Assembly: GCA_035559535.1 (NCBI GenBank)
Contig: DATMBG010000042.1
Coordinates: 1-64,000 of the forward strand
Length of the DNA stretch: 64,000 nt
Direction: 5' to 3'
Origin: Candidatus Limnocylindrales bacterium
Lineage (GTDB): Bacteria; Moduliflexota; Moduliflexia; Moduliflexales; JAUQPW01
Part shown: piece by piece, positions 40,487 through 56,062 of the stretch
Numbering within the stretch: position 1 is the first letter of the stretch
Layout of the letters: every line of letters starts with the position of its first letter
The notes under the pieces: model-generated
Seen by the model: only the letters and a program-made list of their open reading frames with translations
Database searches by the model: none
What the model was told of the DNA's origin: nothing
Program-made: the position numbers and the translations under genes

Positions 40487-41336
40487 GTAATGCTCGAAGC
40501 CGATTCAGATTTTTTCGGTCTGACTCGGCTTCTTTTTTTTTGTCCTTGGGAGTCTCCAAAATCTTAGGAACCTCTTTGAAACGTTCATCTTTCAGGAAGC
40601 ATCGAAAGGCTTCCAGTCCTAAACACCCTTCTCCAATATGCTCGTGCCGATCCACCCGGCAACCCAGCCCTTTTTTAGAATCGTTGACATGGATGGCTTT
40701 GACTCGGGATAAACCCACCATCCCATCCAACTCCTGTAAAATTCTCTGATAACCCTGTTCGGTGCGAATATCATAGCCGGCTGCCAGAAGATGACAGGTA
40801 TCCAGACAAACCCCAAACCGGGGCTTCTCTTCCACCTGTTCCAAAATCTCGGCGAGATGCTCAAACCGATAACCCAAATTAGTTCCCTGCCCCGCCGTAT
40901 TTTCCAACAAAATCATCACCCGAGATCCCGGGGTTTTCTCCAAAGCCCAATTTAAAGATTCTGCAATGCGTCTGATTCCCTCTGACTCTCCGGCTCCCAC
41001 ATGGGACCCGGGATGCATGACCAGATAAGGAATATCCAACTGATCACATCGCTTCAATTCAATAAGAAAAGCTTCTCGAGACTTCTGAAGAAGCTCCAGG
41101 TCCGGAGAACCCAGATTAATCAAGTAGGAATCATGGGCCACCACCGGGCTAATCCCGGTTTCTTTTTGGGCCTCCTTAAACTTTAAGATCTCCTCCTCGG
41201 TTAGATCTTTAACTTTCCATTGATTGGAATTCTTCGTAAAAATCTGAATCGTCGTACATCCCACTTCTTTTCCCCGCAGAAAGGCCTTATAAAGCCCTTC
41301 GGATATCGACATATGCGCACCGAGTAACTCACTCAC
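40479..41336 (-). CDS. nfo: Endonuclease IV
   Basis: [42 protein letters not shown]. Confidence 0.96.
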
Positions 41337-41583
41337 CCTGGAGTCCCTCCTCCCATAGATCCACCCTTAGAAACCGAATCGGAGTCTGAACCCAAAGTAC
41401 TCCGAACCCTTCAGGGCCGGATCCCCTCCCCTTGAGAAAGATTATTTCACTTTACTAAACTTAACATCCACAAAACAGATAAGCAAATCCAGTTTTTAAT
41501 CTTCCACAAAAAATTTCCCAAAGATCCAACAGGATTATACTCACTTCATGGACAAAAAAAATTAATTTTTTCTTGTCTTACCG

Positions 41584-41611
41584 TAACCATTCGCCTGCTT
41601 TTAGGATTTCT
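41584..41611 (+). promoter_or_regulatory. Candidate ECF sigma promoter, copy 1, at the head of the metal island
   Basis: TAACCATT-N11-AGGATTTCT, repeated with identical spacing at 42507-42534. Confidence 0.6.
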
Positions 41612-41711
41612 TTAAATGAAAGGGAGAAAGATGGGGGTTTAATAAAGTGACCGATGAAAAACCCATATCTTGCGTAAAACCTTTTTAATTTTAAGGAAGG
41701 AGGTTGAGGAT

Positions 41712-41768
41712 ATGCTCCGCAAACGATGGATGCTCCGCGCGGTTGCACGTTGCCGCGAGGGTTGTTAA
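41712..41768 (+). CDS. Candidate 18-aa leader peptide MLRKRWMLRAVARCREGC
   Basis: AGGAGG SD 8 nt upstream; C-terminal CxxxC; embedded in a long nested inverted-repeat region. Confidence 0.5.
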   Translation: MLRKRWMLRAVARCREGC

Positions 41769-41916
41769 CCTGGGTCCTGGGTATGACGTTAAACTGCCCA
41801 GAAGAAGATAAAGGACCCAAACCAGATCGGTGAAGGGGTTTTTATGGCAAACGCGAGCAAGACGACCGGAGATTTAATTTGGAGCGAAGGATATCTGGGA
41901 GTCTAAACGTCAGGAA

Positions 41917-42348
41917 ATGTCAAAGGCCCTTTTGAAAAAAATGGGAATTCTAGGGACCTATTTTTCTACCACTTTTGCCCTGGGTTGCTGCGGATTTGGT
42001 CCGTTTCTTTATCTGGTGTCAGGGCTTTCGGCTCTAGGTCTGGGGTTCTTGGCTAATTTGTCGTTACCGATTCTGTATACCTCCTTGGGAATGACGGTAG
42101 TCGGGCTTTTGATCTCCTATCGCCATCATCGCCATCCTTTACCCTTCATCTTAGGTCTGGTTGGCTCCGGTATGATTCTCTATCCTTTCCATGAAGCCCT
42201 GGATGTCTGGATTTTCCGGATTTTTTTCTCTACAGGCCTGGCTCTGTTAACCCTGGGGGTTATTTGGGACTTGATAAATCCCAGGAGATGGCTGCATAAA
42301 GGATTGAGACAAGGAGAAGGCTGGACCCCTTCCCTACTACGAAGGTAG
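41917..42348 (+). CDS. MerC-like mercury transporter
   Basis: Four TM segments, Cys pair in TM1 (LGCCG), SYRHHRHPLPFILG loop. Confidence 0.7.
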   Translation: MSKALLKKMGILGTYFSTTFALGCCGFGPFLYLVSGLSALGLGFLANLSLPILYTSLGMTVVGLLISYRHHRHPLPFILGLVGSGMILYPFHEALDVWIFRIFFSTGLALLTLGVIWDLINPRRWLHKGLRQGEGWTPSLLRR

Positions 42349-42506
42349 AGGTTGATGACTTCTCAGTTACGTTCTTCTCGTTGAATCTGCCTCGCTCTTT
42401 ACTTCCACTGAGATTTTGCCGATCTGTTCCAATCGAAATCACTCACCTGGTTTAGAGTCGGTCAGGTTGCCGGGTTAAAAAATTTAAAATTTTTTCCCAT
42501 AGATGA

Positions 42507-42534
42507 TAACCATTTTCATGTTTTAAGGATTTCT
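42507..42534 (+). promoter_or_regulatory. Candidate ECF sigma promoter, copy 2, directly upstream of the ECF gene
   Basis: TAACCATT-N11-AGGATTTCT ending 31 nt before the sigma ATG. Confidence 0.6.
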
Positions 42535-42565
42535 ATTTACAAAGTAGGTAAAGCCATAGGGGATC

Positions 42566-43150
42566 ATGGGGTATTCGTTTAATAAAATGACCGATGAAGA
42601 GCTCATGGCTCAAGTTCAGAGGGGGGATCAGGCTGCCTTTGAGGAATTATTCAAACGCTACGATCGAAAAATCTTCAATTACTTCCTTCGTTACCTGGGA
42701 GATGAAGAGTTGGCTAAAGACCTTTTTCAAGAAACCTTCCTCCGGGTGTTTCAATTCAGCAAGTCCTATAAGCCGACCACTCACAGTGGACGTTCCTCTT
42801 CTTTTGCAGCCTGGCTCTATACCGTTGCCCGGAATGTGTATAGAAAACAATGGGGACGAGAACCGGTTGAGGGGCGTATGGGAGAGTCCACGTGGGAGAT
42901 GTTAGAAGAAGTTCCAACCCCTAACGCCACGCCTCAGCAGGCAAGGGCCGATCAGGAATTGGTGGAAAAGATCAAACAGGCCCTGGACGCCCTTCCTGAA
43001 AGCCAGCGGGAGGTGGTGATCCTTCATAAGTATCAGGGACTCAGTTATCCTCAAATCGCTCAAGTCCTGGGATGCTCGATAAGTTCTGTGAAGCAAAGGG
43101 CTTTCAGAGCCTATCAGAGCCTCAGGCAGCAATTAGCCGAATATGCCTAA
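42566..43150 (+). CDS. ECF RNA polymerase sigma factor
   Basis: TDEELM, GDQAAFEEL, DLFQETFL, FAAWLYTVARN, LPESQREVV..GLSYPQIA. Confidence 0.93.
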   Translation: MGYSFNKMTDEELMAQVQRGDQAAFEELFKRYDRKIFNYFLRYLGDEELAKDLFQETFLRVFQFSKSYKPTTHSGRSSSFAAWLYTVARNVYRKQWGREPVEGRMGESTWEMLEEVPTPNATPQQARADQELVEKIKQALDALPESQREVVILHKYQGLSYPQIAQVLGCSISSVKQRAFRAYQSLRQQLAEYA

Positions 43151-44084
43151 AGAAGAAGGTGAAACGAACATGTGTAACTCCATTGTTGAACAACTGCCCG
43201 CTTATATCGCCGGGGAGCTGGGGGCTGAAGAGAGGGGAGAAGTAGAAAGACATCTGGCTCACTGCGTCTCCTGCACTTCAGAGCTTAAAGCCTTTCAGAG
43301 AACCTGGGATCTGCTGGATCAATGGGAGGATGTGGTCCCATCTCAGGAGCTTCGGAACAGTGTCCTGGCTCAAGTTCAGAAATTAACCGATGCCAAAAGG
43401 ACCAGAAGAGTCGATGGGTGGAGGTACTTTAAAGGCTTTTCCCACATTGTGTATGGCACCTTGACAGCCGTCCTTTCTGTGTTGCTTCTGGTTAGTAAGG
43501 GCGACCCGGCGGGTCGCCCCTACACAGAACCGTTAACCCTTGAGTTTATTCTGGGCTTTAGTGTACTCTGGACCGGCCTTTATATCCTGGCTTTCTGGTT
43601 GGCCGCCGGGAGGGGAGATCCGACAGTTTCACCTGTAAACTTCGATAAAGTCTTTGGACCTGTAGACTTAGCCCGTATTACCTATGTAGGATTGGTTGCC
43701 ATTGTCATTTCCCTGGTTATCTCCTGGCTGGTTCCCATCCACAGTGTCGTAAAATTCTGTCTAACCCAACCCGGCTTGCAGGGGATCAAGGATAAAATCT
43801 CCATAACCGGGTTCTATTTTCTGTTTGGAGGATTGTATGCCTGGATTCCCTTGCTGATGGTAGCTTCCTTTGAAGGAAGAAAAGTCTCTGGGAGCCCTGT
43901 CAGCTACGGGGTATTAACCGGGGTTATCTTTGTGCTCTTAATGGTACCGGGAATTTTCCTTCAATGTGGCTCTTTAACCCTGGGTATGCTGGTAAGTTGG
44001 ATCTTAGGGACGGCATTGGGATCCATGGCCGGGGGTGTTACCGGCTATTGGATCGCGTTCCGGACCCGGGAGGTTTCCTTATGA
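43143..44084 (+). CDS. Zinc-binding (zf-HC2/ZAS) anti-sigma factor with multi-pass membrane domain
   Basis: HLAHCVSC (HxxxCxxC); overlaps the ECF stop codon; about 6 TM helices with two loop Cys. Confidence 0.82.
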   Translation: MPKEEGETNMCNSIVEQLPAYIAGELGAEERGEVERHLAHCVSCTSELKAFQRTWDLLDQWEDVVPSQELRNSVLAQVQKLTDAKRTRRVDGWRYFKGFSHIVYGTLTAVLSVLLLVSKGDPAGRPYTEPLTLEFILGFSVLWTGLYILAFWLAAGRGDPTVSPVNFDKVFGPVDLARITYVGLVAIVISLVISWLVPIHSVVKFCLTQPGLQGIKDKISITGFYFLFGGLYAWIPLLMVASFEGRKVSGSPVSYGVLTGVIFVLLMVPGIFLQCGSLTLGMLVSWILGTALGSMAGGVTGYWIAFRTREVSL

Positions 44085-44320
44085 CCGAACAAACCTGTAA
44101 TCGGCTCATGAAAACAGGAATGATTGGAGCCATCCTTGCGGCTATCTGCTGTTTTACCCCGGTTTTGGTTATCTTACTGGGCTTGGTGGGACTCAGTACC
44201 GTAGTAGGCTACCTGGACTATGTTCTCATTCCGGCCCTGGGAGCATTTGTGATTCTGGCCGCGTATGCGGTCATTAAAAAGAGACAGTTAGCCTGTTCCG
44301 ATATTCCTAAGGAGGTTTAG
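44081..44320 (+). CDS. merF: MerF mercury transporter
   Basis: GAILAAICCFTPVLVILLGLVGLS..GYLDYVLIPAL; start ATG 44081. Confidence 0.9.
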   Translation: MTEQTCNRLMKTGMIGAILAAICCFTPVLVILLGLVGLSTVVGYLDYVLIPALGAFVILAAYAVIKKRQLACSDIPKEV

Positions 44321-44323
44321 CCG

Positions 44324-45157
44324 ATGAAAACGATTACGACTTTTTCAGCTTTGATTCTCTTTTTAATAGGATCCTTTGTTTTACAGAATATGGTTGCAGC
44401 GGACGTCCCGCTTCAAAAAACAGTTCTCAAAATCCAAGGCATGGTCTGCGAAGCATGTCCGCCCAAGATTAAAAAAGCCCTGGAAGGGTTAGATGGCGTG
44501 AAGAAAGTAGAGGTTAGCCTGGAGAAGGCCGAAGCCTATGTGGAATCGGAACCGGGAAAAGTTACCACCGAACAGATGATACAGGCAGTGGACCAGGCCG
44601 GATTTAAAGCTTCTCCGGCAGCAGAGAATTTTTCAGAGATAACCTTGAAGGTGGAGAATATCAAAGGACCCGAAGATGAGCTTAAGATCAAGCCGGCCTT
44701 GGAGAAGATAGAAGGGGTGAGAAAGGCTTTAGTCGATGCCGAGAAAAAAGAGGTGTTTATAGACTATCTAAAGGATAAGGTAACGGTTCAACAGCTCACC
44801 CAGTCTTTAACCAAGCTAGGCTATCCCCCTCTTTCCCCCTTAACGACCCAGGTAGGGGATTTCCTGGTAACCTTACAGATCCATCCAAAACCTATCAAAG
44901 ACCAGGAAGTCCATTTTGACGTAATCTTACAGAGCTCTGATGGGAAACCTGTCTCCGATGCAGAGGTTCAAGTGGATTTGAGTATGCCCGGGATGACCAT
45001 GGGGGAGATGCGATTTAAAGCGGAACCCGCCGGAGAGGGACGGTATACAGGAAAAGGGAAGTTTTCCATGGAGGGCAAATGGAGAATTGCCATCCGAATT
45101 AATCAAGGGGGACAGAAAAAAATCGCCAACTTCGATATGGAGGTTCCTGAGCAGTAG
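44324..45157 (+). CDS. Exported MerP-like HMA protein: HMA (GMVCEAC), Cys-less HMA and YtkA/FixH-like domain
   Basis: Signal peptide; GMxCxxC; second ferredoxin-like repeat with GPED; LSMPGMTMG...GRYTG..FSMEGKW. Confidence 0.82.
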   Translation: MKTITTFSALILFLIGSFVLQNMVAADVPLQKTVLKIQGMVCEACPPKIKKALEGLDGVKKVEVSLEKAEAYVESEPGKVTTEQMIQAVDQAGFKASPAAENFSEITLKVENIKGPEDELKIKPALEKIEGVRKALVDAEKKEVFIDYLKDKVTVQQLTQSLTKLGYPPLSPLTTQVGDFLVTLQIHPKPIKDQEVHFDVILQSSDGKPVSDAEVQVDLSMPGMTMGEMRFKAEPAGEGRYTGKGKFSMEGKWRIAIRINQGGQKKIANFDMEVPEQ

Positions 45158-45210
45158 GGGGTAGGGCGTTGGCCCGTTGGCCGGCAAATACCCAAAAAGG
45201 GGGTGTTCCC

Positions 45211-45735
45211 ATGAAAGATTTAAAAAAAATTTTATTAAGCCTTTTATTAACCTTTACTCTCATAGCTGCCTTCCTTCCTAAGGCAACTGTTGCCGAAATT
45301 GAAAAGGCTGTTATTAAAGTCAAGGGAACTTTGAGGTGTGTATTCTGAGCTTATGGGATTGACAAATCCGTGGGACGCCTGGAAGGCGTCAAGAAATCTG
45401 AGACCGATTGGAAAGCCGGTTTAACCGTGGTTACCTTCAAGGAAGGGGCCTCGTTGGATCCCAATCAACTGGCAAAAGCCATGGACGCAGCCGGATTTGG
45501 AGCGGATGAGATTACCCTTATCGCCAGGGGAAGCCTGACCGAAGAGAAAGGCTATCCGGCCTTTAAGGTCAGTGGCAGTAATCAAATTTTTCTGCTGGCA
45601 GAGAACGAAGTCCTCAACCAACTTAAAGCCTTGGGCTCCGGGAAAGAAGCAACAATCACAGCCAAAGTGGAGATGAAAGAAGAGGGGACTCCATTTACCC
45701 TGATCCTTGAAAAGGTTGAGTCGCCTACCCTGTAG
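45211..45735 (+). CDS. Exported HMA domain protein; candidate selenoprotein (CVFU, U46)
   Basis: ATG 45211 with signal peptide reads ...VKGTLRCVF*AYGIDKSVGRLEGV; TGA 45346-45348 is in frame with ORF 45370-45735 and aligns with Cys in in-window paralog 58613 (PYCAYGLEK). Confidence 0.85.
45349..45390 (+). promoter_or_regulatory. Candidate SECIS hairpin(s)
   Basis: GGATT-GACA-AATCC, then perfect GACGCCT-GGA-AGGCGTC after the UGA. Confidence 0.5.
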
Positions 45736-45821
45736 GTTGAATTTTGTCTGTTATCCCTGGTCGATTGTCCGGGGTTAAAGGCAAAGAACAAAAAACAACG
45801 GACAACAGACCAGGTTGAGTA

Positions 45822-46883
45822 ATGGGAGAGTTTCTTAAAGAAGTTCTAATATTTATCTATGCCACAGCTAACCATACCTTTTTAATGATGTATTGGGTTT
45901 GGCTTCCGGCTTTTCTCCTCTCCGGCTACCTGTTCACCCGATGGCATCGGGATCCGGTTGATAAGATTCTGCAGGATCGGACCTTGACCTTTAACTCTCT
46001 TTTGCAGGCTGTCAAGTTAGGTGCCTCTTATTCCACGGACCGTCGTAAGGGGCTGGCGGCTGTTGTGGGTTTATTTGAAAAAGGGGTGGTCCCTTTTCCC
46101 CTGATTTTCGCGTTCTGGCTCGCAAGCCAGCACCTGATTCTTTATTCCCTCTCCTTTTTCATGGCCCTGGTTGGAGGCGAGTTCTTTGTGGGACCTGCCG
46201 TGGCCGCGTTGGCTATGATAAGCTTGACAACCCTTTTCTTGAGCCAGATTCCCGAGAATACCTGGGAAGAGGCCAGGAAGCGGTTACGTATCTCCTCACC
46301 CTCCATCCCCCTCTCCCAAAGCTTTGGGAGAGGGGACATAAGGGGTGTGGGTAACCCTCTTCCACAAAGCTGGGGAGGATATTTTCGATATGTAGGCAGG
46401 GAGATCAAAGTGATCTGGAAGAACGTCATCTTGGGGATTATTCTGGCAGGGTTTATTGCGGCCGCCGGACGAACCGAATGGTGGATAGATTTCTCAACAG
46501 TGGGCGGTGGCGGAGTTTTCACGGAAATTTTAAACGTAATTCTCGGAGCGACTATTTCTCTGGTCATCCCCTTATCCCCGGTGGGACATCTCTTCGTAGC
46601 TGCTTTCCTTTGGAAAACCTATACCGTAACCTACGGAGGGATTTTGGGCTTTTTTCTGGCCAGCGCCCTGGACCTCAGAAATTTCTGGGCTTATGGGAAG
46701 CTCCTGGATCCCAAACTGGGGTTGACCGTGGAAGCTTTGGGATTTGCCTCGGCCATCCTGGGTGCTTTGGTCGTGGTGGTCCTGCTCCGGATCGTGGGAT
46801 TTGAAGTAACCCACGCTCCGTTGTTCCATGAGTACGTGGATAAGATCATGATGTTCTTCTCCCTGGGGGGAAAGATGATGTAA
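45822..46883 (+). CDS. Predicted permease (DUF318/ArsP-like architecture)
   Basis: Two TM bundles separated by a soluble loop; IWKNVILGIILAGFIAA, YGGILGF. Confidence 0.6.
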   Translation: MGEFLKEVLIFIYATANHTFLMMYWVWLPAFLLSGYLFTRWHRDPVDKILQDRTLTFNSLLQAVKLGASYSTDRRKGLAAVVGLFEKGVVPFPLIFAFWLASQHLILYSLSFFMALVGGEFFVGPAVAALAMISLTTLFLSQIPENTWEEARKRLRISSPSIPLSQSFGRGDIRGVGNPLPQSWGGYFRYVGREIKVIWKNVILGIILAGFIAAAGRTEWWIDFSTVGGGGVFTEILNVILGATISLVIPLSPVGHLFVAAFLWKTYTVTYGGILGFFLASALDLRNFWAYGKLLDPKLGLTVEALGFASAILGALVVVVLLRIVGFEVTHAPLFHEYVDKIMMFFSLGGKMM

Positions 46884-46899
46884 AAGGAGGTAAGGAAAA

Positions 46900-47811
46900 G
46901 TGAAAAAGGTTATGCTTTATATGGCTCTATCCAGCTTTTTAATCCTGGGAAGTGCTTTCTCAACCCCTCACCCCTTTGGTCCCCCTCTCCCAAAGCTCTG
47001 GGAGAGGGGGAAGGGGGTGAGGGCTGCCACCCCAGATTGCCGAATTGCCTTCCATACCAAGAGGGGAGAGAAAGAATTTAGAATTTCTACCATTCGAATA
47101 GACGGAACAGATATAAAGGACCTGACCTCGGGCCACTGGGACAGTAATCCCTGGTTTTCTCCGGATGGAAAGCAAATCGTCTTTGACCGGGATGAGGAGA
47201 TTTATATCGCGAACACCGATGGAAGTGAGCCGAGAAATCTGACCCATAACCCAAAAGCTAACTCCTGCCCGACCATCGCTGGAGGTAAGGTCGCTTTCCA
47301 GACGAACCGGGATGGGAATTTTGCGATCTATGTGGTGAATACGGATGGAACCGGACTGCAACGATTGACCCAGGAACCATCTAACAATGCCTGTCCGGCC
47401 TTCTCTTCCGATGGAAAGCGACTCGCTTTTGTCTCGGATCGGAACGGCCCCATGGAGATCTACGTAATGAATATTGACGGAACCGGACTCAAACGGCTCA
47501 CTTCTAACGCTGGAAATAACATGGATCCCGCCTTCTCCCCCGATGGGAAAAAGATCGTCTTTACTTCGGACCGAGATGGAAACTTTGAGATCTACCTCAT
47601 GGACAGCGACGGCCATAATCAAACCCGGCTTACCTATAACAATACGTCCGATATCCAACCTGCTTTCTCTCCCGATGGGAAACAGATTGCCTATGAGCGG
47701 GGTGGCAATATTTATGTGATGGACCTTGAGAAACGAGAAGAAAGGCCACTGACCCAGGGAGCTGTATACCGGGGCGGTCCTTCCTGGGATCCTAACTGTG
47801 TTTCTGAATAA
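46900..47811 (+). CDS. Exported TolB-like PD40 beta-propeller protein
   Basis: Repeated PAFSPDGKxIxFxSDRDGNFEIYxM motifs; signal peptide. Confidence 0.88.
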   Translation: MKKVMLYMALSSFLILGSAFSTPHPFGPPLPKLWERGKGVRAATPDCRIAFHTKRGEKEFRISTIRIDGTDIKDLTSGHWDSNPWFSPDGKQIVFDRDEEIYIANTDGSEPRNLTHNPKANSCPTIAGGKVAFQTNRDGNFAIYVVNTDGTGLQRLTQEPSNNACPAFSSDGKRLAFVSDRNGPMEIYVMNIDGTGLKRLTSNAGNNMDPAFSPDGKKIVFTSDRDGNFEIYLMDSDGHNQTRLTYNNTSDIQPAFSPDGKQIAYERGGNIYVMDLEKREERPLTQGAVYRGGPSWDPNCVSE

Positions 47812-47827
47812 GGAAGGATAGAGTGCT

Positions 47828-48436
47828 ATGAAAAGTTTTAACCTTTTTTCAACCCTTCGACCAGCCTGTCCTGAGCGAAGCCGAAGGGCTCAGGACGCAG
47901 CCTGGCTGAGTATAGCTCTAACGCTTTTGATCTCGCTGTTTTCTTTACACCCAAGTTCGGTTTATGCTGAGGACCTTCGGAAAGTGACCATCAAGGTAGG
48001 TTGGATGCTCTGTGAAAAGTGACCTCCGGCGGTGAAAGCAGCTTTGGAGAAGCTGGAAGGTGTAAAAAAAGTTGAGGTCAGTCTGGAGAAGGCTTCAGCT
48101 TATGTGGAGTATGAGGCTAGAAAGGTCACTCCGGATCAGATGGTAGCGGCAGTGAACCAGGCGGGATATATGGCGTTTCTTCCTCCCAAGGATCTGGTGG
48201 AGATCACGTTAGCCATCGAAGGTCTCAAGGGTCCTGAGGATGAGCTGAAAATCAAACCGGCCCTGGAGAAGGTGGATGGGATCAGGAAGGCTTTGGTGTA
48301 TACAAAGGAAAAGGAGGTCTATGTGGAATATATGAAAAATCAGATTACCCTTCAACGGATCACTGAAGAGATCTCGAAACTGGGCTATAAGGTGATCCTG
48401 CCTTCTGTTGAAGGGAAAGAAAGGTGCCAAAGATAA
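47828..48436 (+). CDS. Exported MerP-like tandem HMA protein; candidate selenoprotein (CEKU, U65)
   Basis: ORFs 47828-48022 and 48032-48436 are in frame; WMLCEK*PPAVKAALEKLEGVKKVEVSLEKA aligns with paralog 44324 GMVCEACPPKIKKALEGLDGVKKVEVSLEKA. Confidence 0.9.
48023..48055 (+). promoter_or_regulatory. Candidate SECIS hairpin
   Basis: CTCCGG..GAAA..TTGGAG stem-loop, or the alternative CAGCTT-TGGAG-AAGCTG. Confidence 0.45.
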
Positions 48437-48457
48437 AATTTAACGAAGGTTTGATTC

Positions 48458-48691
48458 ATGAAATCGACCCAGGAAAAGAGAACCCTGAAGGGATATTTGC
48501 TTTTGGTCACGGCTTTTATTACCTGTCCCTGCCATCTCCCTTTAACGTTGGTTTTACTAGGGGGAACAGCTTGGGGTGGGTTTATCGCAGCAAACCAGAC
48601 GCTAATTTTTGTTGTAGCTCTGGTTTATTTCCTTTTTGCATTAGTTTTTGGTTTGAAAATCCTTAGCAAAGAAGTGGAGGATCGGTCATGA
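48458..48691 (+). CDS. merE: MerE-like mercury/methylmercury transporter
   Basis: GYLLLVTAFITCPCHLPL..LLGGTAWG, the MerE CPCHLP signature. Confidence 0.85.
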   Translation: MKSTQEKRTLKGYLLLVTAFITCPCHLPLTLVLLGGTAWGGFIAANQTLIFVVALVYFLFALVFGLKILSKEVEDRS

Positions 48692-48785
48692 GTTCCTAGT
48701 CCCTAGTCCTTTGCCTATAGTCCACACTCAGGTGAAGGACAAGGCATGAAGAACCCAAGTCGATCTCTAAAAGGAGGGTATTCAC

Positions 48786-49025
48786 GTGACGTCTAAAAAA
48801 GTCATTGTCTATAGTTCCACCGGTTGAGCCGCTTGTAAGCAGACGAAAGAGTTTCTTTCGCAAAAAGGGGTTGCGTTCACGGACATTAACGTTAGCGAGA
48901 ATCCGGAAGCTCTGGATGAAATGGTTCAGAAGGCTGGAGGAACCATGGCAACGCCTACGGTCCTCATCGGGGATGAGGTGGTCATAGGATTTAATCCCAA
49001 ACGATTGATGGAGCTTTTGGCTTAG
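48786..49025 (+). CDS. Glutaredoxin/NrdH-like protein; candidate selenoprotein (UAAC, U14); missing from the ORF track
   Basis: AAGGAGG SD, GTG start, MTSKKVIVYSSTG*AACKQTKEFLSQKGVAFTDINV...ATPTVLIGDEVVIGFNP; TGA 48825-48827. Confidence 0.9.
48844..48860 (+). promoter_or_regulatory. Candidate SECIS hairpin of the glutaredoxin
   Basis: Perfect CGAAAGA-GTT-TCTTTCG; loop G is 23 nt after the UGA. Confidence 0.55.
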
Positions 49026-49102
49026 GTGGCTTGTTGGTTAGGTCGTCAGGTTGGTCACCAGTAACCTGACGACCTGGCTACCCAAGCAAAGGAGGTCATT
49101 CT

Positions 49103-49762
49103 TTGAAAGCAGGAAAATTTAGTCTACTATCTACGCTGATGGCATTGATTTGTTGTTTTGGCCCTATAGCCCTATTGGCTATAGGGCTGGGAAGTGCCGG
49201 ATTAACCGTTGGCTTGTTAAAATATAAAAGGGTTTTTCTCTCTCTAGGTCTAACAGCTTTGGCTTTTTCCTATTATCTATACTTTCGAGAGAAGACCCGC
49301 TGTACCACCCAGGGATGCCAGATGGTCAACACGAGGTTTAACAAGGCCTTGTTGATCTTTTCAACCCTCACGGTCCTGACCTTTGTGGTTTTTTCTTATC
49401 TCCCTTACTCCCATGCCAATCATCCGTCATCGGACCAGGCAGCTTTGGTTGCCGCCGCTTCTACGCCTCAAGTGCTCTATTTTTGGGAACCCTGTCCCAC
49501 CTGCGCAGTCTTAAACCCCCTTGTAGAAAGCCTGGAGAAAACCTACCAGGGAAAAGTACGCTTCCGGTGGGTCAATATGATCACAGATGATGACTCGCTC
49601 CGGCTGGCCCGGCAGGAAAATCTAAAGGCAATTCCTTATCTGGTCTTTAAATCCGCGGATGGGCAGCCGGTGGACTATATCGTTGGTTTTTTTACTTACG
49701 AAACAGCCAAAGAGAAGATTGAAAATCTTTTAAAAAACAGAAAGCAAGATCAGAGAGGTTGA
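49103..49762 (+). CDS. MerT-like transporter fused to a thioredoxin domain
   Basis: ICCFGPIALLAIG, loop CTTQGC, three TMs, then WEPCPTC...AIP thioredoxin fold. Confidence 0.8.
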   Translation: MKAGKFSLLSTLMALICCFGPIALLAIGLGSAGLTVGLLKYKRVFLSLGLTALAFSYYLYFREKTRCTTQGCQMVNTRFNKALLIFSTLTVLTFVVFSYLPYSHANHPSSDQAALVAAASTPQVLYFWEPCPTCAVLNPLVESLEKTYQGKVRFRWVNMITDDDSLRLARQENLKAIPYLVFKSADGQPVDYIVGFFTYETAKEKIENLLKNRKQDQRG

Positions 49763-49842
49763 CGGTTAGAGAGGAAACGCAGTTATTCTCTCATCGCAAC
49801 CTATCTGAATAATCCAATAACAGCTAAGGAGGGATTAAGAAT

Positions 49843-50433
49843 ATGAGAAATCGGCCAAAACAAACCTTCGTTCCATGGGCAGTCCGCGTCATCCTGGGAA
49901 GTTTTATTCTTTTCATTTTGATGCTCTGGTTTGTAGTAAAACCTGGAGAGGCTGAGAATCAGGCTTTAAAAGCCCTTGGGGGATCAGAGGTTAAGGAAGC
50001 TCTAGAAGCCCCGGATTTTATCATACAAACTCCAGATGGAAAAGCGCTTCACCTGAAGGATTATCGGGGCAAGGCCATTCTCCTCAACTTTTGGGCGACC
50101 TGGTGTGGCCCTTGTGCCAAGGAGCTTCCTAAAATGGCCAAGCTTTATGAGCAGTATAAGGATAAAGGGTTCGTTCTGATAGGGGTATCCCTGGATTTTG
50201 GGAATCCGGAGGTGGTCAAAGCATTTCTGGAAGAACGTGGATTAAATTTTCCGGTTGGCATCGATACAGAAAAGGAGGCGGTTAAAGCCTATGGAGTTCG
50301 CGGACTTCCCACCAGTTATTTTATCAATCCACAGGGGAAGGTGGTTGGATGGCTGACAGGAGAGAGGGACTGGGAGGGTGAGGCCGCCCATCATTTAATC
50401 AAGTCCTTGTTAGACCAAGCCCCTAAGGGGTAA
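49843..50433 (+). CDS. TlpA/ResA family membrane-anchored disulfide reductase
   Basis: APDF, LNFWATWCGPCAKELP, YGVRGLPTS. Confidence 0.92.
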   Translation: MRNRPKQTFVPWAVRVILGSFILFILMLWFVVKPGEAENQALKALGGSEVKEALEAPDFIIQTPDGKALHLKDYRGKAILLNFWATWCGPCAKELPKMAKLYEQYKDKGFVLIGVSLDFGNPEVVKAFLEERGLNFPVGIDTEKEAVKAYGVRGLPTSYFINPQGKVVGWLTGERDWEGEAAHHLIKSLLDQAPKG

Positions 50434-50447
50434 ACCTCTCAATTTTT

Positions 50448-50580
50448 GTAACTATTCAGGCCCTCACCCCTAACCCCTCTCCCGAGGCTTCGGGAGAGGG
50501 GGAACGAGGAGAAGAGATTCTAACCTCTTACCCTCTCCTACAGCGTGGGAGAGGGGCTGGGGGTGAGGGTGAACAGTTAC
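50448..50580. repeat. MITE-like GTAACTATTCA...TGAACAGTTAC element containing CCCTCTCCC/GGGAGAGGG palindromes
   Basis: Inverted termini; palindrome family also at 19659-19700, 46294-46351, 46964-47023, 60705-60786. Confidence 0.65.
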
Positions 50581-50614
50581 CAAATTTTAAACCTTAACTT
50601 TAGAGGAGGAGACC

Positions 50615-51100
50615 ATGTTCAAAAAATTTAAAGTTTATACGTTCGGCATACCCCTATTAACCCTTGCATTAATGGGCATATTCATGCTCCCTACAAGCCT
50701 GATCCTGGCTCAGGATGGACGGGTCGAGAAGGTTTCTAATTCTCCATTTGATAAAACCATCAAACAACTGGAGGATGCGATCACGGCTAACAAAGTGATG
50801 GCTGTCAACAAAATTGACCATCAAAATATGCTCACCATGGTAGGGATGAACATCAAAGGGAGCAAAACGTATGAGGTGTTTCGCCCCGATTTTGGTAAGA
50901 TCCTTTTTGAGAGCAATCCCGCTGCCGGGTTGGAGATACCCTTAAGAATCTATGTCTACGAAAATAAGGAGGGAAAAACCGTGGTCAGTTACCATAAGCC
51001 TTCAGTGGCTCTGGCAGTTTACAAGAATCCCAAGCTGGATGAGCTGGGTAAGACTCTGGATGGCATTCTTCAGGCCATTGCCGATAGCGCCACAAAATAA
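50615..51100 (+). CDS. Exported DUF302 family protein
   Basis: Signal peptide; IDHQ, GLEIPLRIYVYE, VSYHKPS. Confidence 0.75.
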   Translation: MFKKFKVYTFGIPLLTLALMGIFMLPTSLILAQDGRVEKVSNSPFDKTIKQLEDAITANKVMAVNKIDHQNMLTMVGMNIKGSKTYEVFRPDFGKILFESNPAAGLEIPLRIYVYENKEGKTVVSYHKPSVALAVYKNPKLDELGKTLDGILQAIADSATK

Positions 51101-51188
51101 TTTAAATCCAGGGGTTAGTTGTTAGGGGCTGGGGATGAGTGCGGACCCCTAACCCCTTTAGTTTTACTTTGAAAGCGAGGTTAGTCTT

Positions 51189-51998
51189 ATGGTTGATAAA
51201 TTCCTTTATACTTCGATAATCCTTATGGCCATTGTAGCCTTCATAGTCGGAGGCGCTCTGGTGATCCTAGGGCTTATAAAAAGACATCGGCATACCAAAG
51301 AACTGCTGCTGACTTTGATAGTTCTGGCGAGTGTTGGAGTTTCTCCAAACCTTACCGTCTTCAGCCCGGCCGGGTTCATCTCCTGGAGCACGTATTTCTG
51401 GTATCTGGTAGTTCCAGGTTTCATCCTATTTATAGGGATCCTGATCTATGCCTATGTCTCCGGTGAGCAAAGGCTCTTCAACCGGATGTGGGCCGGGATG
51501 TGGGCTGGGTTCGCAGCGGCTATTGCTTTAGATATAGTACGACTCACGGGATTTAAGCTGGGTTACATGCCCGGCAACATGCCACGGATGTTCGGAGTTA
51601 TGATCTGGGGAAACATGCTGGAAGGCCCCAATGCCTTATCTGATTTTATTGGGTATGCCTACCATTTCTGGAATGGATGTGCCTTCGGGATTGTATACGC
51701 CCTAATTTTCGGCAAGACAAGCTGGATCGGTCCCTTAATCTACTCAGCGGCTTTTGTTGAGATCGGGATGATGATTAGCCCGGCCATGCTCTCCATGGGA
51801 GTGGGACCCTTTGGGATCAACTTTGGTCCGGGGTTGTTTATGGTAAGCCTATTAGCTCATATTGCCATGGGTATCGTGATGGGAGTTATCCTCCAGCGAT
51901 ATGTCCGGGACCAGGGTACGATTCTGAAGTTGCTCCCCTTTGGGGAAGAAAGGTCAGGGGAAGTGCTGACGGGCTATGGTCAAACTTCCAGAAGCTGA
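51189..51998 (+). CDS. Hypothetical multi-pass membrane protein, Met/His-rich
   Basis: About 7 TM segments; MPGNMPRMFG, YHFWNGC, AHIAMG. Confidence 0.7.
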   Translation: MVDKFLYTSIILMAIVAFIVGGALVILGLIKRHRHTKELLLTLIVLASVGVSPNLTVFSPAGFISWSTYFWYLVVPGFILFIGILIYAYVSGEQRLFNRMWAGMWAGFAAAIALDIVRLTGFKLGYMPGNMPRMFGVMIWGNMLEGPNALSDFIGYAYHFWNGCAFGIVYALIFGKTSWIGPLIYSAAFVEIGMMISPAMLSMGVGPFGINFGPGLFMVSLLAHIAMGIVMGVILQRYVRDQGTILKLLPFGEERSGEVLTGYGQTSRS

Positions 51999-52092
51999 AA
52001 GGGCAGCTGGAAAACCAGTGTGGGAGTATGGAGGTGTGGGAGTGCGGGAATTACTCCCACACCTCTATACTCCCACACCAGTCGAGGTTCTT

Positions 52093-53529
52093 ATGAAGCA
52101 AAAAGAAAAGCCATCACATTACGATTTAGTCATCCTGGGATCCGGTTCGGCAGCTTTTGCTGCGGCCATCAAAGCCTCTGAATTAGGGGCTCGGGTGGCC
52201 ATGACGGAAAGCCGGGTCGTGGGTGGGACCTGTGTCAACCGGGGATGTATCCCGAGTAAAAACCTGATTCGAGCCGCTGAGATTTATTACAGCGCTCGTA
52301 ACCAGCCCTTTGACGGCATTGAGCTGGAGCAGAAAAGGTTGGACTTTGGTCGTCTCATCGCCCAGAAGGATGAGCTGGTAGAGCGGCTCCGATACAAAAA
52401 ATATATCAGCATTGCCGAAGAGGATGAGCGAATAACTATCTTTACCGGACCAGCCCGGTTCATCTCCCCCCATCAGGTTCAGGTTGGGGATCAAGTTCTT
52501 CAAGCAGAGAAGTTCCTCATTGCCACAGGAGGGAGAACCCAGATTCCCGATATTGAAGGATTATCGGAAGTGGGGTACCTCACCAGCGATTTGCTGGCCA
52601 GCGGGGAGAGCATGGAGCTCAAGGAATTACCTCAATCTTTGCTGATTATTGGAGGGGGATATATCGCAGCGGAACTGGGTCAGATGTTCCAGCGGTTCGG
52701 AACGCAGGTCACGATGATCGAGCGAGGATCCCGGCTCATCAAAACTTTTGATGAAGAAGTGGCGGCGGTTTTAAGGAAGGTCCTGGAGGAAGAAGGGGTG
52801 AAGCTGGTGTTTGAGGCAAATCTGGTTAAGGTTATCCAACAAGAAGGGCAGGTTCGTCTGACCGTTGAAGTCAGGGGTCAGAAACAAGATCTGGTCGGTG
52901 AGAAGCTGTTGTTAGCTACCGGTGTTGTACCTAACACGAAGGATCTGGGCTTAGAAAAGGTGGGCGTTAAGCTCGACCCGCAAGGCTTTGTGAAAGTGAA
53001 CGAAGAAATGAGAACCACGGCTTCCCATATCTGGGCGGCAGGGGATGTGACCGGAGCGCCTTTAGCCACGCCGGTGGGAGCCCGGGAAGGGGTGGTGGCC
53101 GCTGAGAACATGCTGAACCCCAAGGCTCATAAAAAGATGGACTATTGGGCCATTCCGAGGGCGATCTTTACCGATCCAGAGGTAGCCAGCGTAGGATTAA
53201 CGGTTCAGCAGGCCAGAGATCAAGGCTATGAGGTAGATGCTAACTGCCTGGATCTGGCCCATGTCCCCAAGGCGGCTGCCATTCGGGATACTCGGGGGCT
53301 GGTGAAAATGGTCATGGATAAAAAGACCCGACAGGTTTTAGGAGTCCATTTGATAGCCCATCGGGGAGCGGACATCATCCATGAAGCGGCCCTGGCGGTT
53401 AAGTTTAAGCTCACAGCGGATGATCTCATCGAAACGGTTCATGTTTATCCAACCCTATCCGAGGCTATCCGGATGGTGGCCCAGACGTTTACAAAGGATG
53501 TCTCTAAGCTGAGCTGCTGTGCCGAGTAG
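52093..53529 (+). CDS. merA: Mercuric reductase without NmerA domain
   Basis: GSGSAAFAAA, GGTCVNRGCIPSK, HVYPTLSE, C-terminal LSCCAE; start corrected to ATG 52093. Confidence 0.93.
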   Translation: MKQKEKPSHYDLVILGSGSAAFAAAIKASELGARVAMTESRVVGGTCVNRGCIPSKNLIRAAEIYYSARNQPFDGIELEQKRLDFGRLIAQKDELVERLRYKKYISIAEEDERITIFTGPARFISPHQVQVGDQVLQAEKFLIATGGRTQIPDIEGLSEVGYLTSDLLASGESMELKELPQSLLIIGGGYIAAELGQMFQRFGTQVTMIERGSRLIKTFDEEVAAVLRKVLEEEGVKLVFEANLVKVIQQEGQVRLTVEVRGQKQDLVGEKLLLATGVVPNTKDLGLEKVGVKLDPQGFVKVNEEMRTTASHIWAAGDVTGAPLATPVGAREGVVAAENMLNPKAHKKMDYWAIPRAIFTDPEVASVGLTVQQARDQGYEVDANCLDLAHVPKAAAIRDTRGLVKMVMDKKTRQVLGVHLIAHRGADIIHEAALAVKFKLTADDLIETVHVYPTLSEAIRMVAQTFTKDVSKLSCCAE

Positions 53530-53638
53530 GTCAAACGTCTCGTTTGATTAGGAAAAGTCAGGGATCAGATCCAGAGAACCTGGAATGAGTACTTTCTGAT
53601 CTCTCTTACCTGTGAGACCTGGGAAGAGGGGGACTCTT

Positions 53639-56062
53639 ATGAATGAAAATATCTTGACAAACGATGGGCAGGCCTTTGGCTACCCAGGGATTCCACCCAG
53701 GTGGACCTTGAGTTCAAAGGAAGGGGTGGGAACGGCCTATTCCACGTCCAGCCGGGTATGGTTCACTATATCCCATGGCATCCTCACTGAGGTTTACTAT
53801 CCCACCATAGACCGTCCGCAGATCAGGGATCTCCAATTTCTCCTCAGTGACGGCGAAACCTTTTTTCATGAAGAAAAGCGCAACCTGGTTAGCGAAGTCG
53901 AGTACCTCGAGCGAGACACCCTGGGCTATCGCATCGTGAGCACCGACCCTGAAGGGCGATATCGGATCATCAAGGAGATTCTCTCTGATCCTCATCAATC
54001 TTGTGTGTTAGTACACGCCCGAATCGAAGCTATTGAGGCTTCAGAAGATTGGTTAAACCGCTTGCAGGTTTATGTATTGATGGCGCCTCATCTGGAGGTG
54101 GGCGGATGGGGCAACTCAGCCCGGAGGTTTCATGCTGCCGGCTGTGACCTCCTCGTAGCATGGAAAGGCCGTACCTATCTGGCAATGGGAGTGAATGTGG
54201 GGTTCACCAAGACATCTTGCGGCTATGTGGGTTTCAGTGATGGCTGGCAAGACCTCCACGACAACTTTCAGATGGACTGGCAGTTCCAACGGGCTGAGAA
54301 TGGGAATGTCGCGGTCATCGGGCAAATAGACCTTGCGAAAGACAAAGAGTTTACGCTAGGATTGGCCTTCGGTGACGGACTCCACGCAGCAGTAACCACC
54401 CTCACCCAATCACTGAGCGTACCCTTCGCCGATCATCGAGAAAAATACATCGCCCAGTGGTACCGTGTCTGTTGCGATATACCGGAGCTGGATAAGTACT
54501 CCGGGGACGGAGGACGGATCTATCGGATCAGCCATAGCTTGCTGCTGGCCCACGAAGACAAAACCTTTGCGGGTGCCTTGATCGCCTCAGCGAGCATTCC
54601 TTGGGGGGACGCCAAGGGGGATGAAGACCTCGGTGGCTATCATCTGGTATGGACCCGCGACATGGTTCACAGTGTTACAGGATTGCTGGCCTGCGGGGAC
54701 CTGATAACCCCCCGCAGAGCCCTTATCTATCTGGCCTGCTCGCAGCGTCCAGATGGGGGTTTCCCACAAAACTTCTGGCTGGATGGAACGCCTTACTGGA
54801 GCGGCATCCAACTCGACGAGGTCGCCTTCCCTGTGATCCTCGCCTGGAAGCTCTGGAAGGCTGAAGCCTTGGGTGAGTTCGATCCTTACCTCATGGTCAG
54901 GGCCGCGGCCACTTACTTGATTCGTCAAGGTCCCATGACCCAGCAGGAGCGCTGGGAAGAGAACAGCGGATACTCCCCCTCGACCCTTGCAGTGACTATT
55001 GCGGCTCTCATCTGCGCAGCCGACTTTGCCAGATCTCGTAGGCAGGAAAAGCTCGCCGTTTTCCTGCAGGATTATGCGGACTTCCTGGAGTCCCATGTCG
55101 AGCGCTGGACGGTGACGACCCAGGGGGGTCTATTGCCAGAGATTCCCAGGCATTACATCCGCATCCATCCGACGGATATCCACGATCCCGCTCCGGACGA
55201 AGATCCCAATCGTGGCATGCTGGCAATTCGCAACCGGCCACCGGGGGAGCCCTGGGAGTTTCCGGCCAAAGACATCGTCGATGCCGGTTTCCTGGAATTG
55301 GTCCGTTACGGCCTACGCAAGCCAGGAGACCCGCTTATCGAGGATTCGCTCCAAGTCGTGGACGCTGTGCTCAAGGTAGATACCCCCTTCGGTCCCTGCT
55401 GGCATCGCTACAACCATGACGGATACGGCCAGCGTCCGGATGGCGGCCCATTTGAAGGATGGGGAAAGGGACGGGCCTGGCCGCTTCTCACAGGGGAGCG
55501 GGGCCACTATGAGCTTGCAGCTGGCCGCGACGCGAGACCATACATCCGCGCGATGGAGGGATTCGCTTCCAGAGGTGGCCTGCTTCCTGAGCAGGTGTGG
55601 GATGAAGCAGACCGGCCTGAGATCAAGATGTACCTGGGGCGGCCTGCGGGCTCGGCCATGCCTCTGATGTGGGCCCACGCCGAATATATCAAACTGTTAC
55701 GGTCTGTTGCTGACGGCCAGGTGTTCGACCTGATCCCAATTGTAGCCGAGCGCTATCTGGTCGGACGGGGGCGCAAGGACCTTGAGGTGTGGAAGCCAAA
55801 CCGTCAGGTCCGGCAAGTGGTACCGGGGCAGGTGCTGCGGGTTCAGGCACCAGCAGCTTTCTGGCTGCACTGGACGGATAATGAGTGGCAGGACGTTTAC
55901 GATACACGGTCAACGCCAACGGCCCTTGGTATCGAGTTCGTGGATATCCCAATTGCGTTAGAGCAGCGTGCCCCGATCCGCTTTACCTTCCGATGGGTGG
56001 AAGGAGATCACTGGGAAGGTAAAGATTATGCAGTGACCATTGACCACAAGACACCGCGATAA
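53639..56062 (+). CDS. Glycoside hydrolase family 15 (glucoamylase/glucodextranase-like)
   Basis: TEVYYP, ASASIPWG, GYHLVWTRD, QERWEE, LPEQVW, MPLMWAHAEY. Confidence 0.9.
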   Translation: MNENILTNDGQAFGYPGIPPRWTLSSKEGVGTAYSTSSRVWFTISHGILTEVYYPTIDRPQIRDLQFLLSDGETFFHEEKRNLVSEVEYLERDTLGYRIVSTDPEGRYRIIKEILSDPHQSCVLVHARIEAIEASEDWLNRLQVYVLMAPHLEVGGWGNSARRFHAAGCDLLVAWKGRTYLAMGVNVGFTKTSCGYVGFSDGWQDLHDNFQMDWQFQRAENGNVAVIGQIDLAKDKEFTLGLAFGDGLHAAVTTLTQSLSVPFADHREKYIAQWYRVCCDIPELDKYSGDGGRIYRISHSLLLAHEDKTFAGALIASASIPWGDAKGDEDLGGYHLVWTRDMVHSVTGLLACGDLITPRRALIYLACSQRPDGGFPQNFWLDGTPYWSGIQLDEVAFPVILAWKLWKAEALGEFDPYLMVRAAATYLIRQGPMTQQERWEENSGYSPSTLAVTIAALICAADFARSRRQEKLAVFLQDYADFLESHVERWTVTTQGGLLPEIPRHYIRIHPTDIHDPAPDEDPNRGMLAIRNRPPGEPWEFPAKDIVDAGFLELVRYGLRKPGDPLIEDSLQVVDAVLKVDTPFGPCWHRYNHDGYGQRPDGGPFEGWGKGRAWPLLTGERGHYELAAGRDARPYIRAMEGFASRGGLLPEQVWDEADRPEIKMYLGRPAGSAMPLMWAHAEYIKLLRSVADGQVFDLIPIVAERYLVGRGRKDLEVWKPNRQVRQVVPGQVLRVQAPAAFWLHWTDNEWQDVYDTRSTPTALGIEFVDIPIALEQRAPIRFTFRWVEGDHWEGKDYAVTIDHKTPR

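Follow-up and report, generated by a model that had tools for sequence, protein, structure and literature searches.

A probable MerP-like selenoprotein with tandem HMA domains in a mercury-type gene cluster of a Candidatus Limnocylindrales bacterium

The MerP-MerT-MerA pathway of mercury handling is established, and among described systems MerP is one of the closest to a gene that we analysed at positions 47828-48436 (+ strand) of a 64,000-nucleotide stretch of DNA from Candidatus Limnocylindrales bacterium (GenBank assembly GCA_035559535.1, contig DATMBG010000042.1, positions 1 to 64,000; hereafter the window). The gene carries an in-frame TGA, is real, and very probably encodes a selenoprotein composed of two consecutive HMA domains. 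As with MerP (TIGR02052; PDB 1afi, 1osd), the product is predicted from its sequence to be exported and to present, in an HMA domain, a metal loop that links strand 1 to helix 1, and the gene adjoins those of Mer transporters and shares a cluster with that of the mercury(II) reductase MerA. Unlike MerP, a single domain of ~72 mature residues, the predicted mature protein has ~155 residues in two HMA domains, the second of which is without ligands; its second ligand would be selenocysteine (Sec) rather than Cys, and the cluster is headed by genes for an extracytoplasmic function (ECF) sigma factor and an anti-sigma factor. Our overall reading, held with moderate confidence, is that the gene encodes an exported, MerP-like, tandem-HMA selenoprotein of a mercury pathway.

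HMA selenoproteins as a category are already catalogued, and no new category is opened here. The NCBIfam family NF041115, 'UxxU_metal_bind', is listed as 'putative mercuric reductase / metal-binding protein, UxxU' in PMC9312934 and PMC13188914, and the terms PF00403 and HMA are absent from the 2026 review. This family likewise groups HMA-type selenoproteins with Sec at a metal-ligand position, but it describes a single domain of 74 positions with the motif UxxU, whereas in the present protein Sec occupies solely the second position (CxxU). It is nevertheless the highest-scoring NCBIfam model for the product, at 94.9 bits summed over two domains against a cut-off of 95, the single domain reaching 57.7 bits. 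A 'Mercuric transport protein MerP' selenoprotein family appears in Table 2 of the Global Ocean Sampling (GOS) selenoproteome as previously described, that is, predicted before 2008, and was met again in the ocean metagenomes as two sequences from one sample (PMC2398784); it is likewise a MerP-type selenoprotein, and the table gives neither motif nor domain. MerT-family selenoproteins are mentioned in bioRxiv 10.1101/2022.07.06.499078, and NF045683, the 'MerT/CopZ fusion-like heavy metal transport selenoprotein', shares with the present protein the placing of Sec in a mercury-type transport protein. Both are membrane fusions, whereas the protein encoded here is predicted to be soluble and exported, and it scores 45.9 bits against the NF045683 cut-off of 375. 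The N-terminus of Bacillus subtilis CopA (1p6t, 2rml) offers a precedent for two consecutive HMA folds; in CopA, however, both domains are CxxC and form cytoplasmic parts of an ATPase, while here the second domain is ligand-less and the protein appears to be free and exported. What is new is the combination of a CxxU motif and tandem HMA domains, the second without ligands, with a nearby Cys paralogue and two more selenoprotein genes, in a cluster that ends in MerA. Beyond catalogue entries, our literature search retrieved no account of an HMA protein with CxxU that is encoded in a mer operon, a provisional result, as the supplementary sequences of PMC2398784, which are possibly MerP-type, lay outside that search.

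Probable selenocysteine at the in-frame TGA

Under translation table 11 the locus is split into two open reading frames, 47828-48022 (64 residues, ending in GWMLCEK) and 48032-48436 (134 residues, with a GTG start), which lie in the same frame and are parted solely by the TGA at 48020-48022. Reading this TGA as Sec yields a single product of 202 residues, ending at the TAA at 48434-48436, with the motif C-x-x-U, in which C62 is encoded by TGT and U65 by TGA. A Shine-Dalgarno-like purine run, AAGGAAGGA (47810-47818), stands 9 nt before the ATG at 47828, and a purine-rich run occupies the matching position in the sister species. The first 47 residues (47828-47968) form a predicted Sec-type signal peptide, in which a basic stretch is followed by a hydrophobic core and by V-Y-A, with cleavage expected after this motif and before E48; the orthologue in the sister species (locus L020) has a classical signal peptide ending in A-H-A. 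Export of a mature protein of ~155 residues would follow from this reading, and the signal-like segment proposed in an earlier, sequence-only reading of the locus (hereafter the original prediction) is thus recognizable in the sequence.

Insertion of Sec at UGA 48020 is highly probable, judging from the frame, homology, conservation, machinery and gene context. The one further species in this genus (G001) has the same gene, the same TGA and the same gene order, at a synonymous divergence (dS) of ~0.32-0.36 between the two species. The ratio of replacement to synonymous divergence (omega; Nei-Gojobori, from this one orthologue) comes to 0.32 for the 48 aligned codons that lie upstream of the TGA and to 0.23 for the 138 that lie downstream, and the 18 mature codons preceding the TGA carry four synonymous changes and one replacement. 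There is, then, purifying selection on both sides of the TGA, and the original prediction that the sequence after the TGA is conserved holds. A stretch of 53 nt (48005-48057), comprising the TGA, the 35 bases after it and the hairpin discussed below, is identical in both species. Over the 20 codons after the TGA dS is 0.15 vs. 0.36, a difference that rests on two synonymous changes and is not used as evidence.

Homology points the same way. A search of 1.84 billion representative proteins returned 4342 matches at an expected value (E) of <=0.001, and from the best 150 of these we aligned 11 full-length-looking small exported forms (P0104 and ten more distant proteins), together with a Cys paralogue encoded in the window at 44324-45157. 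In every aligned relative outside the two orthologues, that is, in the 11 database proteins and the Cys paralogue, the column of U65 is Cys. The product aligns to the paralogue by BLASTP over 86/166 identities (52%; E 3e-58) and, as had been claimed, without gaps, with the TGA opposite the second Cys of the paralogue's C-E-A-C; the similarity, as was also said, extends across the second HMA repeat, the shared KGPEDELKIKPALEK stretch included. What the original prediction observed in the sequence thus holds in each detail examined.

The source genome encodes the machinery that Sec insertion would call upon, namely selB (408.6 bits; cut-off 242.25), selA (622.1 bits; cut-off 267.9), selD (388.6 bits; cut-off 125) and a tRNA-Sec (74.5 bits; cut-off 47), whose anticodon ARAGORN gives as TCA, and selB is above its cut-off in 8/9 species genomes of this small phylum. 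General recoding of TGA can be ruled out, as TGA serves as an ordinary stop at the end of 4/18 genes checked in and around the cluster. Gene callers split 47828-48436, and protein databases carry just the 134-residue tail (P0003); therefore, both the capacity for mercury handling and the dependence on selenium are under-read in this poorly sampled phylum, for which nine species genomes are available.

Mercury or another metal as the proposed bound ion

The original prediction of a MerP-like HMA protein with CxxU is borne out by profile and structure. Pfam HMA (PF00403) matches the product at 66.4 bits (cut-off 24.8) in two stretches. The first domain spans residues ~50-117 (47975-48178) and carries the loop G-W-M-L-C62-E-K-U65, and the second spans residues ~123-190 (48194-48397) and has neither Cys nor Sec, such that the canonical G-M-x-C-x-x-C ligand motif occurs in neither. 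In an AlphaFold2 model built from a 13-row alignment (mean predicted local distance difference test, pLDDT, 82.9; 137 residues >=90), residues 50-192 lie nearly all above 90, with low confidence in the region of the signal peptide. The model comprises two beta-alpha-beta-beta-alpha-beta units, and in the first of these C62 sits in the loop after strand 1 (residues 50-58) and U65 at the start of helix 1 (residues 65-74). The top single-domain Foldseek match is oxidised MerP (1osd), with a template-modelling score of 0.95, a root-mean-square deviation of 0.9 over 71 columns and 35% identity, and MerP 1afi is matched in sequence at E 1.3e-9. The second domain, and the protein as a tandem (residues 50-192), match the CopA N-terminus 1p6t (E 6.5e-11), the top two-domain structural hit.

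The surroundings are of Mer type. The gene lies in a cluster of ~11.6 kb (41917-53529) in which all genes are on the + strand and separated by short gaps, with MerA at the end. Here a MerP-like protein is encoded together with Mer transporters (MerE, MerF and a MerT-thioredoxin fusion) and with MerA in co-directional order. A gene for a MerC-like membrane protein (41917-42348; Pfam MerC 31.9 bits vs. 27.6) stands upstream of the cluster head, which is formed by the genes of an ECF sigma and a zf-HC2 anti-sigma factor (42566-44084). The next open reading frame (43964-44320) encodes a MerF-like transporter (NF033565, 94 bits vs. 50; also Pfam MerF) and overlaps the anti-sigma gene, its real start probably lying further in. 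The Cys paralogue at 44324-45157 comprises a signal peptide, an HMA domain with C-E-A-C, a ligand-less HMA domain and a YtkA-like domain, as assigned by profile matches, BLASTP and a phylogenetic tree. It is followed by a second gene for an exported HMA selenoprotein (45211-45735), in which the motif is C-V-F-U and the TGA lies at 45346-45348; between this gene and 47828 are found a Cys-less ArsP-type permease and a PD40 beta-propeller protein.

Only 21 nt downstream of 47828-48436 begins the gene of a MerE-like small membrane protein with a C-P-C motif (48458-48691; Pfam MerE 37.7 bits vs. 22.8; NCBIfam 47.1, under the cut-off of 80). There follow a glutaredoxin-like selenoprotein gene (48786-49025) with the motif U-A-A-C and a TGA at 48825-48827, a fusion of a MerT-like membrane domain with a thioredoxin domain (49103-49762) and an exported TlpA/ResA-like thiol-disulfide oxidoreductase (49843-50433), the last two identified by profile matches, and then a DUF302 protein, a membrane protein and MerA itself (51976-53529). 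The MerA is without an N-terminal HMA domain, as its match to TIGR02053 (542.7 bits vs. 454.45) runs from residue 49, and the glutaredoxin-like selenoprotein might stand in for the missing domain. The same-operon relationship claimed for the Sec and Cys genes stands insofar as both are on the + strand, 2.7 kb apart, within one run of short gaps; the operon itself is suggested by this layout, and a scan of 41300-54000 gave nine promoter-like sites and 17 resembling terminators, counts that shuffled sequence equals or exceeds (11.3 and 17.2, respectively) and that are silent on where an operon would end. The original prediction had further proposed general metal scavenging in the periplasm. With another CxxU HMA gene, a UxxC glutaredoxin-like gene and MerA in the cluster, none of which that prediction mentions at this point, the context is one of mercury handling instead.

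On this basis the following sequence of events is proposed. Translation would start at ATG 47828, and the hairpin at 48039-48055 would recruit SelB with Sec-tRNA(Sec) at UGA 48020, such that Sec is inserted as U65. The signal peptide would be cleaved after residue 47, placing the ~155-residue mature protein outside the cytoplasmic membrane, where the first HMA domain would hold a soft metal between Cys62 and Sec65. We consider it fairly likely, by analogy with MerP, that this metal is Hg(II). The ion would then be handed to the adjacent MerE-, MerT- and MerF-type membrane proteins, and MerA, at the end of the cluster, would reduce it. The second domain, being ligand-less, probably serves for docking or spacing, and the TlpA-like and thioredoxin-fused proteins probably serve to keep the Cys-Sec pair reduced.

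The alternative that survives best is that Sec is inserted as proposed, and that the protein nonetheless has a role unrelated to mercury, as a chaperone of Cu(I) or another soft metal or as a Cys-Sec redox protein of the envelope, merely co-located with mer genes. HMA domains bind Cu(I), Zn and Cd besides Hg. The product exceeds the cut-off of the copper chaperone model chaper_CopZ_Bs (91.6 bits; cut-off 91) and falls short of that of the MerP equivalog TIGR02052 (80.6 bits; cut-off 92.55), and the top tandem structural matches are copper ATPase N-termini. The cluster also encodes the ArsP-type permease, the PD40 propeller, the TlpA and thioredoxin redox proteins and the YtkA-like domain, the last of which, on the Cys paralogue, leaves other metals possible. 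It is headed by ECF sigma and anti-sigma genes, and profile scans gave no match to the MerR family in the proteins that they covered. These points count against mercury as the bound metal. They are set against a MerA that clears its equivalog cut-off (542.7 vs. 454.45 bits), four Mer-type transporter families (MerF, MerE, MerT and MerC-like) around the gene, and the occurrence in another lineage of a Sec-containing HMA gene between MerT-like and MerA genes. A role outside mercury handling is thus possible but on balance unlikely.

The mercury-handling interpretation can be extended to the cluster as a whole, in which three selenoprotein candidates are found, with TGA codons at 45346, 48020 and 48825. 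The C-V-F-U gene retains its TGA in the sister species, with an omega of 0.13 downstream; its product has a C-terminal domain of ~75 residues without a family match, and a full-length homologue of 173 residues (32% identity) has C-A-F-C at the motif. The glutaredoxin-like product matches Pfam Glutaredoxin at 58.3 bits and NF041212 (Uxx-star) at 64.6 bits, just under the cut-off of 66, and its TGA is likewise conserved in the sister species (omega downstream 0.09). Conceivably, these components together constitute a selenium-based mercury relay, in which two exported CxxU HMA proteins would capture Hg(II), the Mer-type transporters would import it, and the cytoplasmic UxxC glutaredoxin-like selenoprotein would hand it to MerA, while the Cys paralogue, with its HMA-HMA-YtkA architecture, would cover periods of selenium scarcity, and an ECF sigma/anti-sigma switch would act in place of MerR. 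So complete a scheme is tentative, and as a whole we think it doubtful. If true, it would offer a natural Sec/Cys pair in one operon with which to measure what selenium gains in metal trafficking. Irrespective of that scheme, two CxxU HMA proteins beside a CxxC paralogue constitute a natural comparison for asking why Sec is used at a metal-binding rather than a redox site, for which tighter Hg-Se binding, a lower pKa and faster ligand exchange are possible reasons from general chemistry.

Stop codon, sequence error and the downstream hairpin

A less probable alternative is that the TGA is a true stop, and that the locus is either a decaying duplicate or a pair of genes encoding a 64-residue peptide and a 134-residue protein translated from GTG 48032. 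The splitting of the gene by gene callers and the presence of the tail alone in databases agree with this alternative. Under rules of the bSECISearch type, the loop of a bacterial selenocysteine insertion sequence (SECIS) stands 16-37 nt from the UGA and has a G among its first two bases. The hairpin that the original prediction had placed after the UGA is present at 48039-48055, 16 nt downstream, as 17 nt of perfect structure with a 7-bp stem, a GGA loop and a stability of -6.0 kcal/mol, and it fits these rules. Statistically it is weak. Hairpins at least as stable follow 998/13266 in-frame positions (7.5%) in the long frames of the window and arise in 321/3000 synonymous recodings of the same peptide (10.7%), and it was dropped as stand-alone proof; the hairpin is compatible with a SECIS, not proof of one. 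At the corresponding site of the Cys paralogue, moreover, there is a less stable hairpin (-5.4 kcal/mol), which in the sister species is eroded by a synonymous change to -2.4 kcal/mol. Only two species carry this exact gene, so covariation evidence is not to be had, and a relative represented by a 16-kb contig from run X7 does without most of it, its sequence joining 47801 to 48220 and 48267 to 48457. The hairpin statistics and the shortened relative agree with a true stop, and, together with the hairpin of the paralogue and the two-species range, they count against our overall reading.

Several findings stand against the stop codon interpretation. The TGA has been kept across the divergence of the two species, with constraint on either side of it as given above, and falls exactly at the position of the ligand Cys. 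A product initiated at GTG 48032 would be without strand 1, the metal loop and the signal peptide, and inspection of the sequence before this GTG revealed no purine-rich ribosome-binding run. Two further genes of the cluster carry TGA at a Cys position, and hairpins of like format (7 bp, with a G-first triloop 23-35 nt after the U codon) stand behind three other TGAs of this genome, in selD (-9.8 kcal/mol, loop at +23, 72/3000 recodings as good), in the C-V-F-U gene (45374-45390; -9.9 kcal/mol, loop at +35, 4/3000 recodings) and in the glutaredoxin-like gene (48844-48860; -5.2 kcal/mol, loop at +26, 74/3000 recodings). We therefore regard a true stop as improbable, and retain the reading of the TGA as a Sec codon. 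selD (G000:C29:76668-77594) is itself a selenoprotein gene, with a single in-frame TGA and, after it, a 7-bp hairpin whose loop is GGU.

That the TGA is a sequencing or assembly error for TGT or TGC is a negligible prospect, because a contig from a different study (run X2) spans 47865-48043 with no differences, TGA included, and the separately assembled sister species has the same codon, which places the TGA in three assemblies; the source sequencing run also shows no differences, but is not independent.

Ancestry and occurrence in other lineages

The original prediction described the Sec and Cys genes as a duplicated pair, and in a maximum-likelihood tree (15 rows, midpoint root only) the two Sec orthologues group with three Cys-paralogue sequences in a single clade (support 100/98), such that gene 44324 can be called a true paralogue. 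This clade is nested among Cys proteins, and Sec is therefore most simply a derived state that followed duplication in this lineage. The two proteins are not equivalent, given the additional C-terminal YtkA-like domain of the Cys paralogue. The division of labour suggested in the original prediction, between Se-dependent and Se-independent, or high- and low-affinity, scavengers, is a plausible but speculative, and incomplete, idea. The run X7 relative proceeds from the PD40 gene nearly straight to the MerE-like gene, and its lack of most of the C-E-K-U gene therefore implies that this gene is either dispensable or recent, in keeping with an accessory component that was elaborated recently. A separate, low-depth contig from run X7 covers 47938-48197, and the contigs from runs X3 and X7 match at 89-93% identity.

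Within a sample of 401 genomes, 69 had an HMA match and seven matches contained TGA. In two of the latter (G384 and G380) the TGA precedes the start codon, and these are not selenoproteins; the five genomes with Sec in the HMA ligand motif comprise the two of this genus (CxxU), G014 and G183 (UxxC) and G095 (UxxU). The G014 gene (L053, contig C264) encodes a UxxC HMA protein between MerT-like and MerA genes, and that of G183 (L056, contig C163) an exported tandem HMA protein with UxxC and a ligand-less second domain. The G095 gene (L058, contig C78) encodes a MerT-HMA fusion in which UxxU is joined by a third U, and as such exemplifies Sec in the HMA part of a fusion. A word-indexed protein search gave three matches among 491 candidates, all from this genus, and is too insensitive for mapping the family. 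Among the pattern matches from a scan of metagenomes, at least 597 in number, two loci were confirmed; both are distant forms with UxxU, and no further orthologue of 47828-48436 was found among those matches. Two estuarine contigs (L054 and L055) encode UxxU HMA proteins, and the frame of L055 continues into a Cys-rich C-terminal part with a further in-frame TGA.

Within the signal-peptide region lies an in-frame palindromic insertion of 48 bp (47853-47900), which the sister species does not have; it is also missing from a run X3 contig, where 47852 is joined to 47901. Its identity as a multi-copy repeat was considered and rejected, as the genome holds one copy at <=2 mismatches and two at <=4; a large number of unrelated metagenome contigs match the insertion at ~85%. 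Elsewhere in the cluster, G/C-rich, repeat-like stretches occur in frame within the ArsP-type permease gene (46294-46335) and at the PD40 protein's N-terminus (46981-47024), encoding peptides such as P-L-P-K-L-W-E-R-G. Many metagenome contigs end or begin at these two stretches, of which the genome contains six copies at <=5 mismatches.

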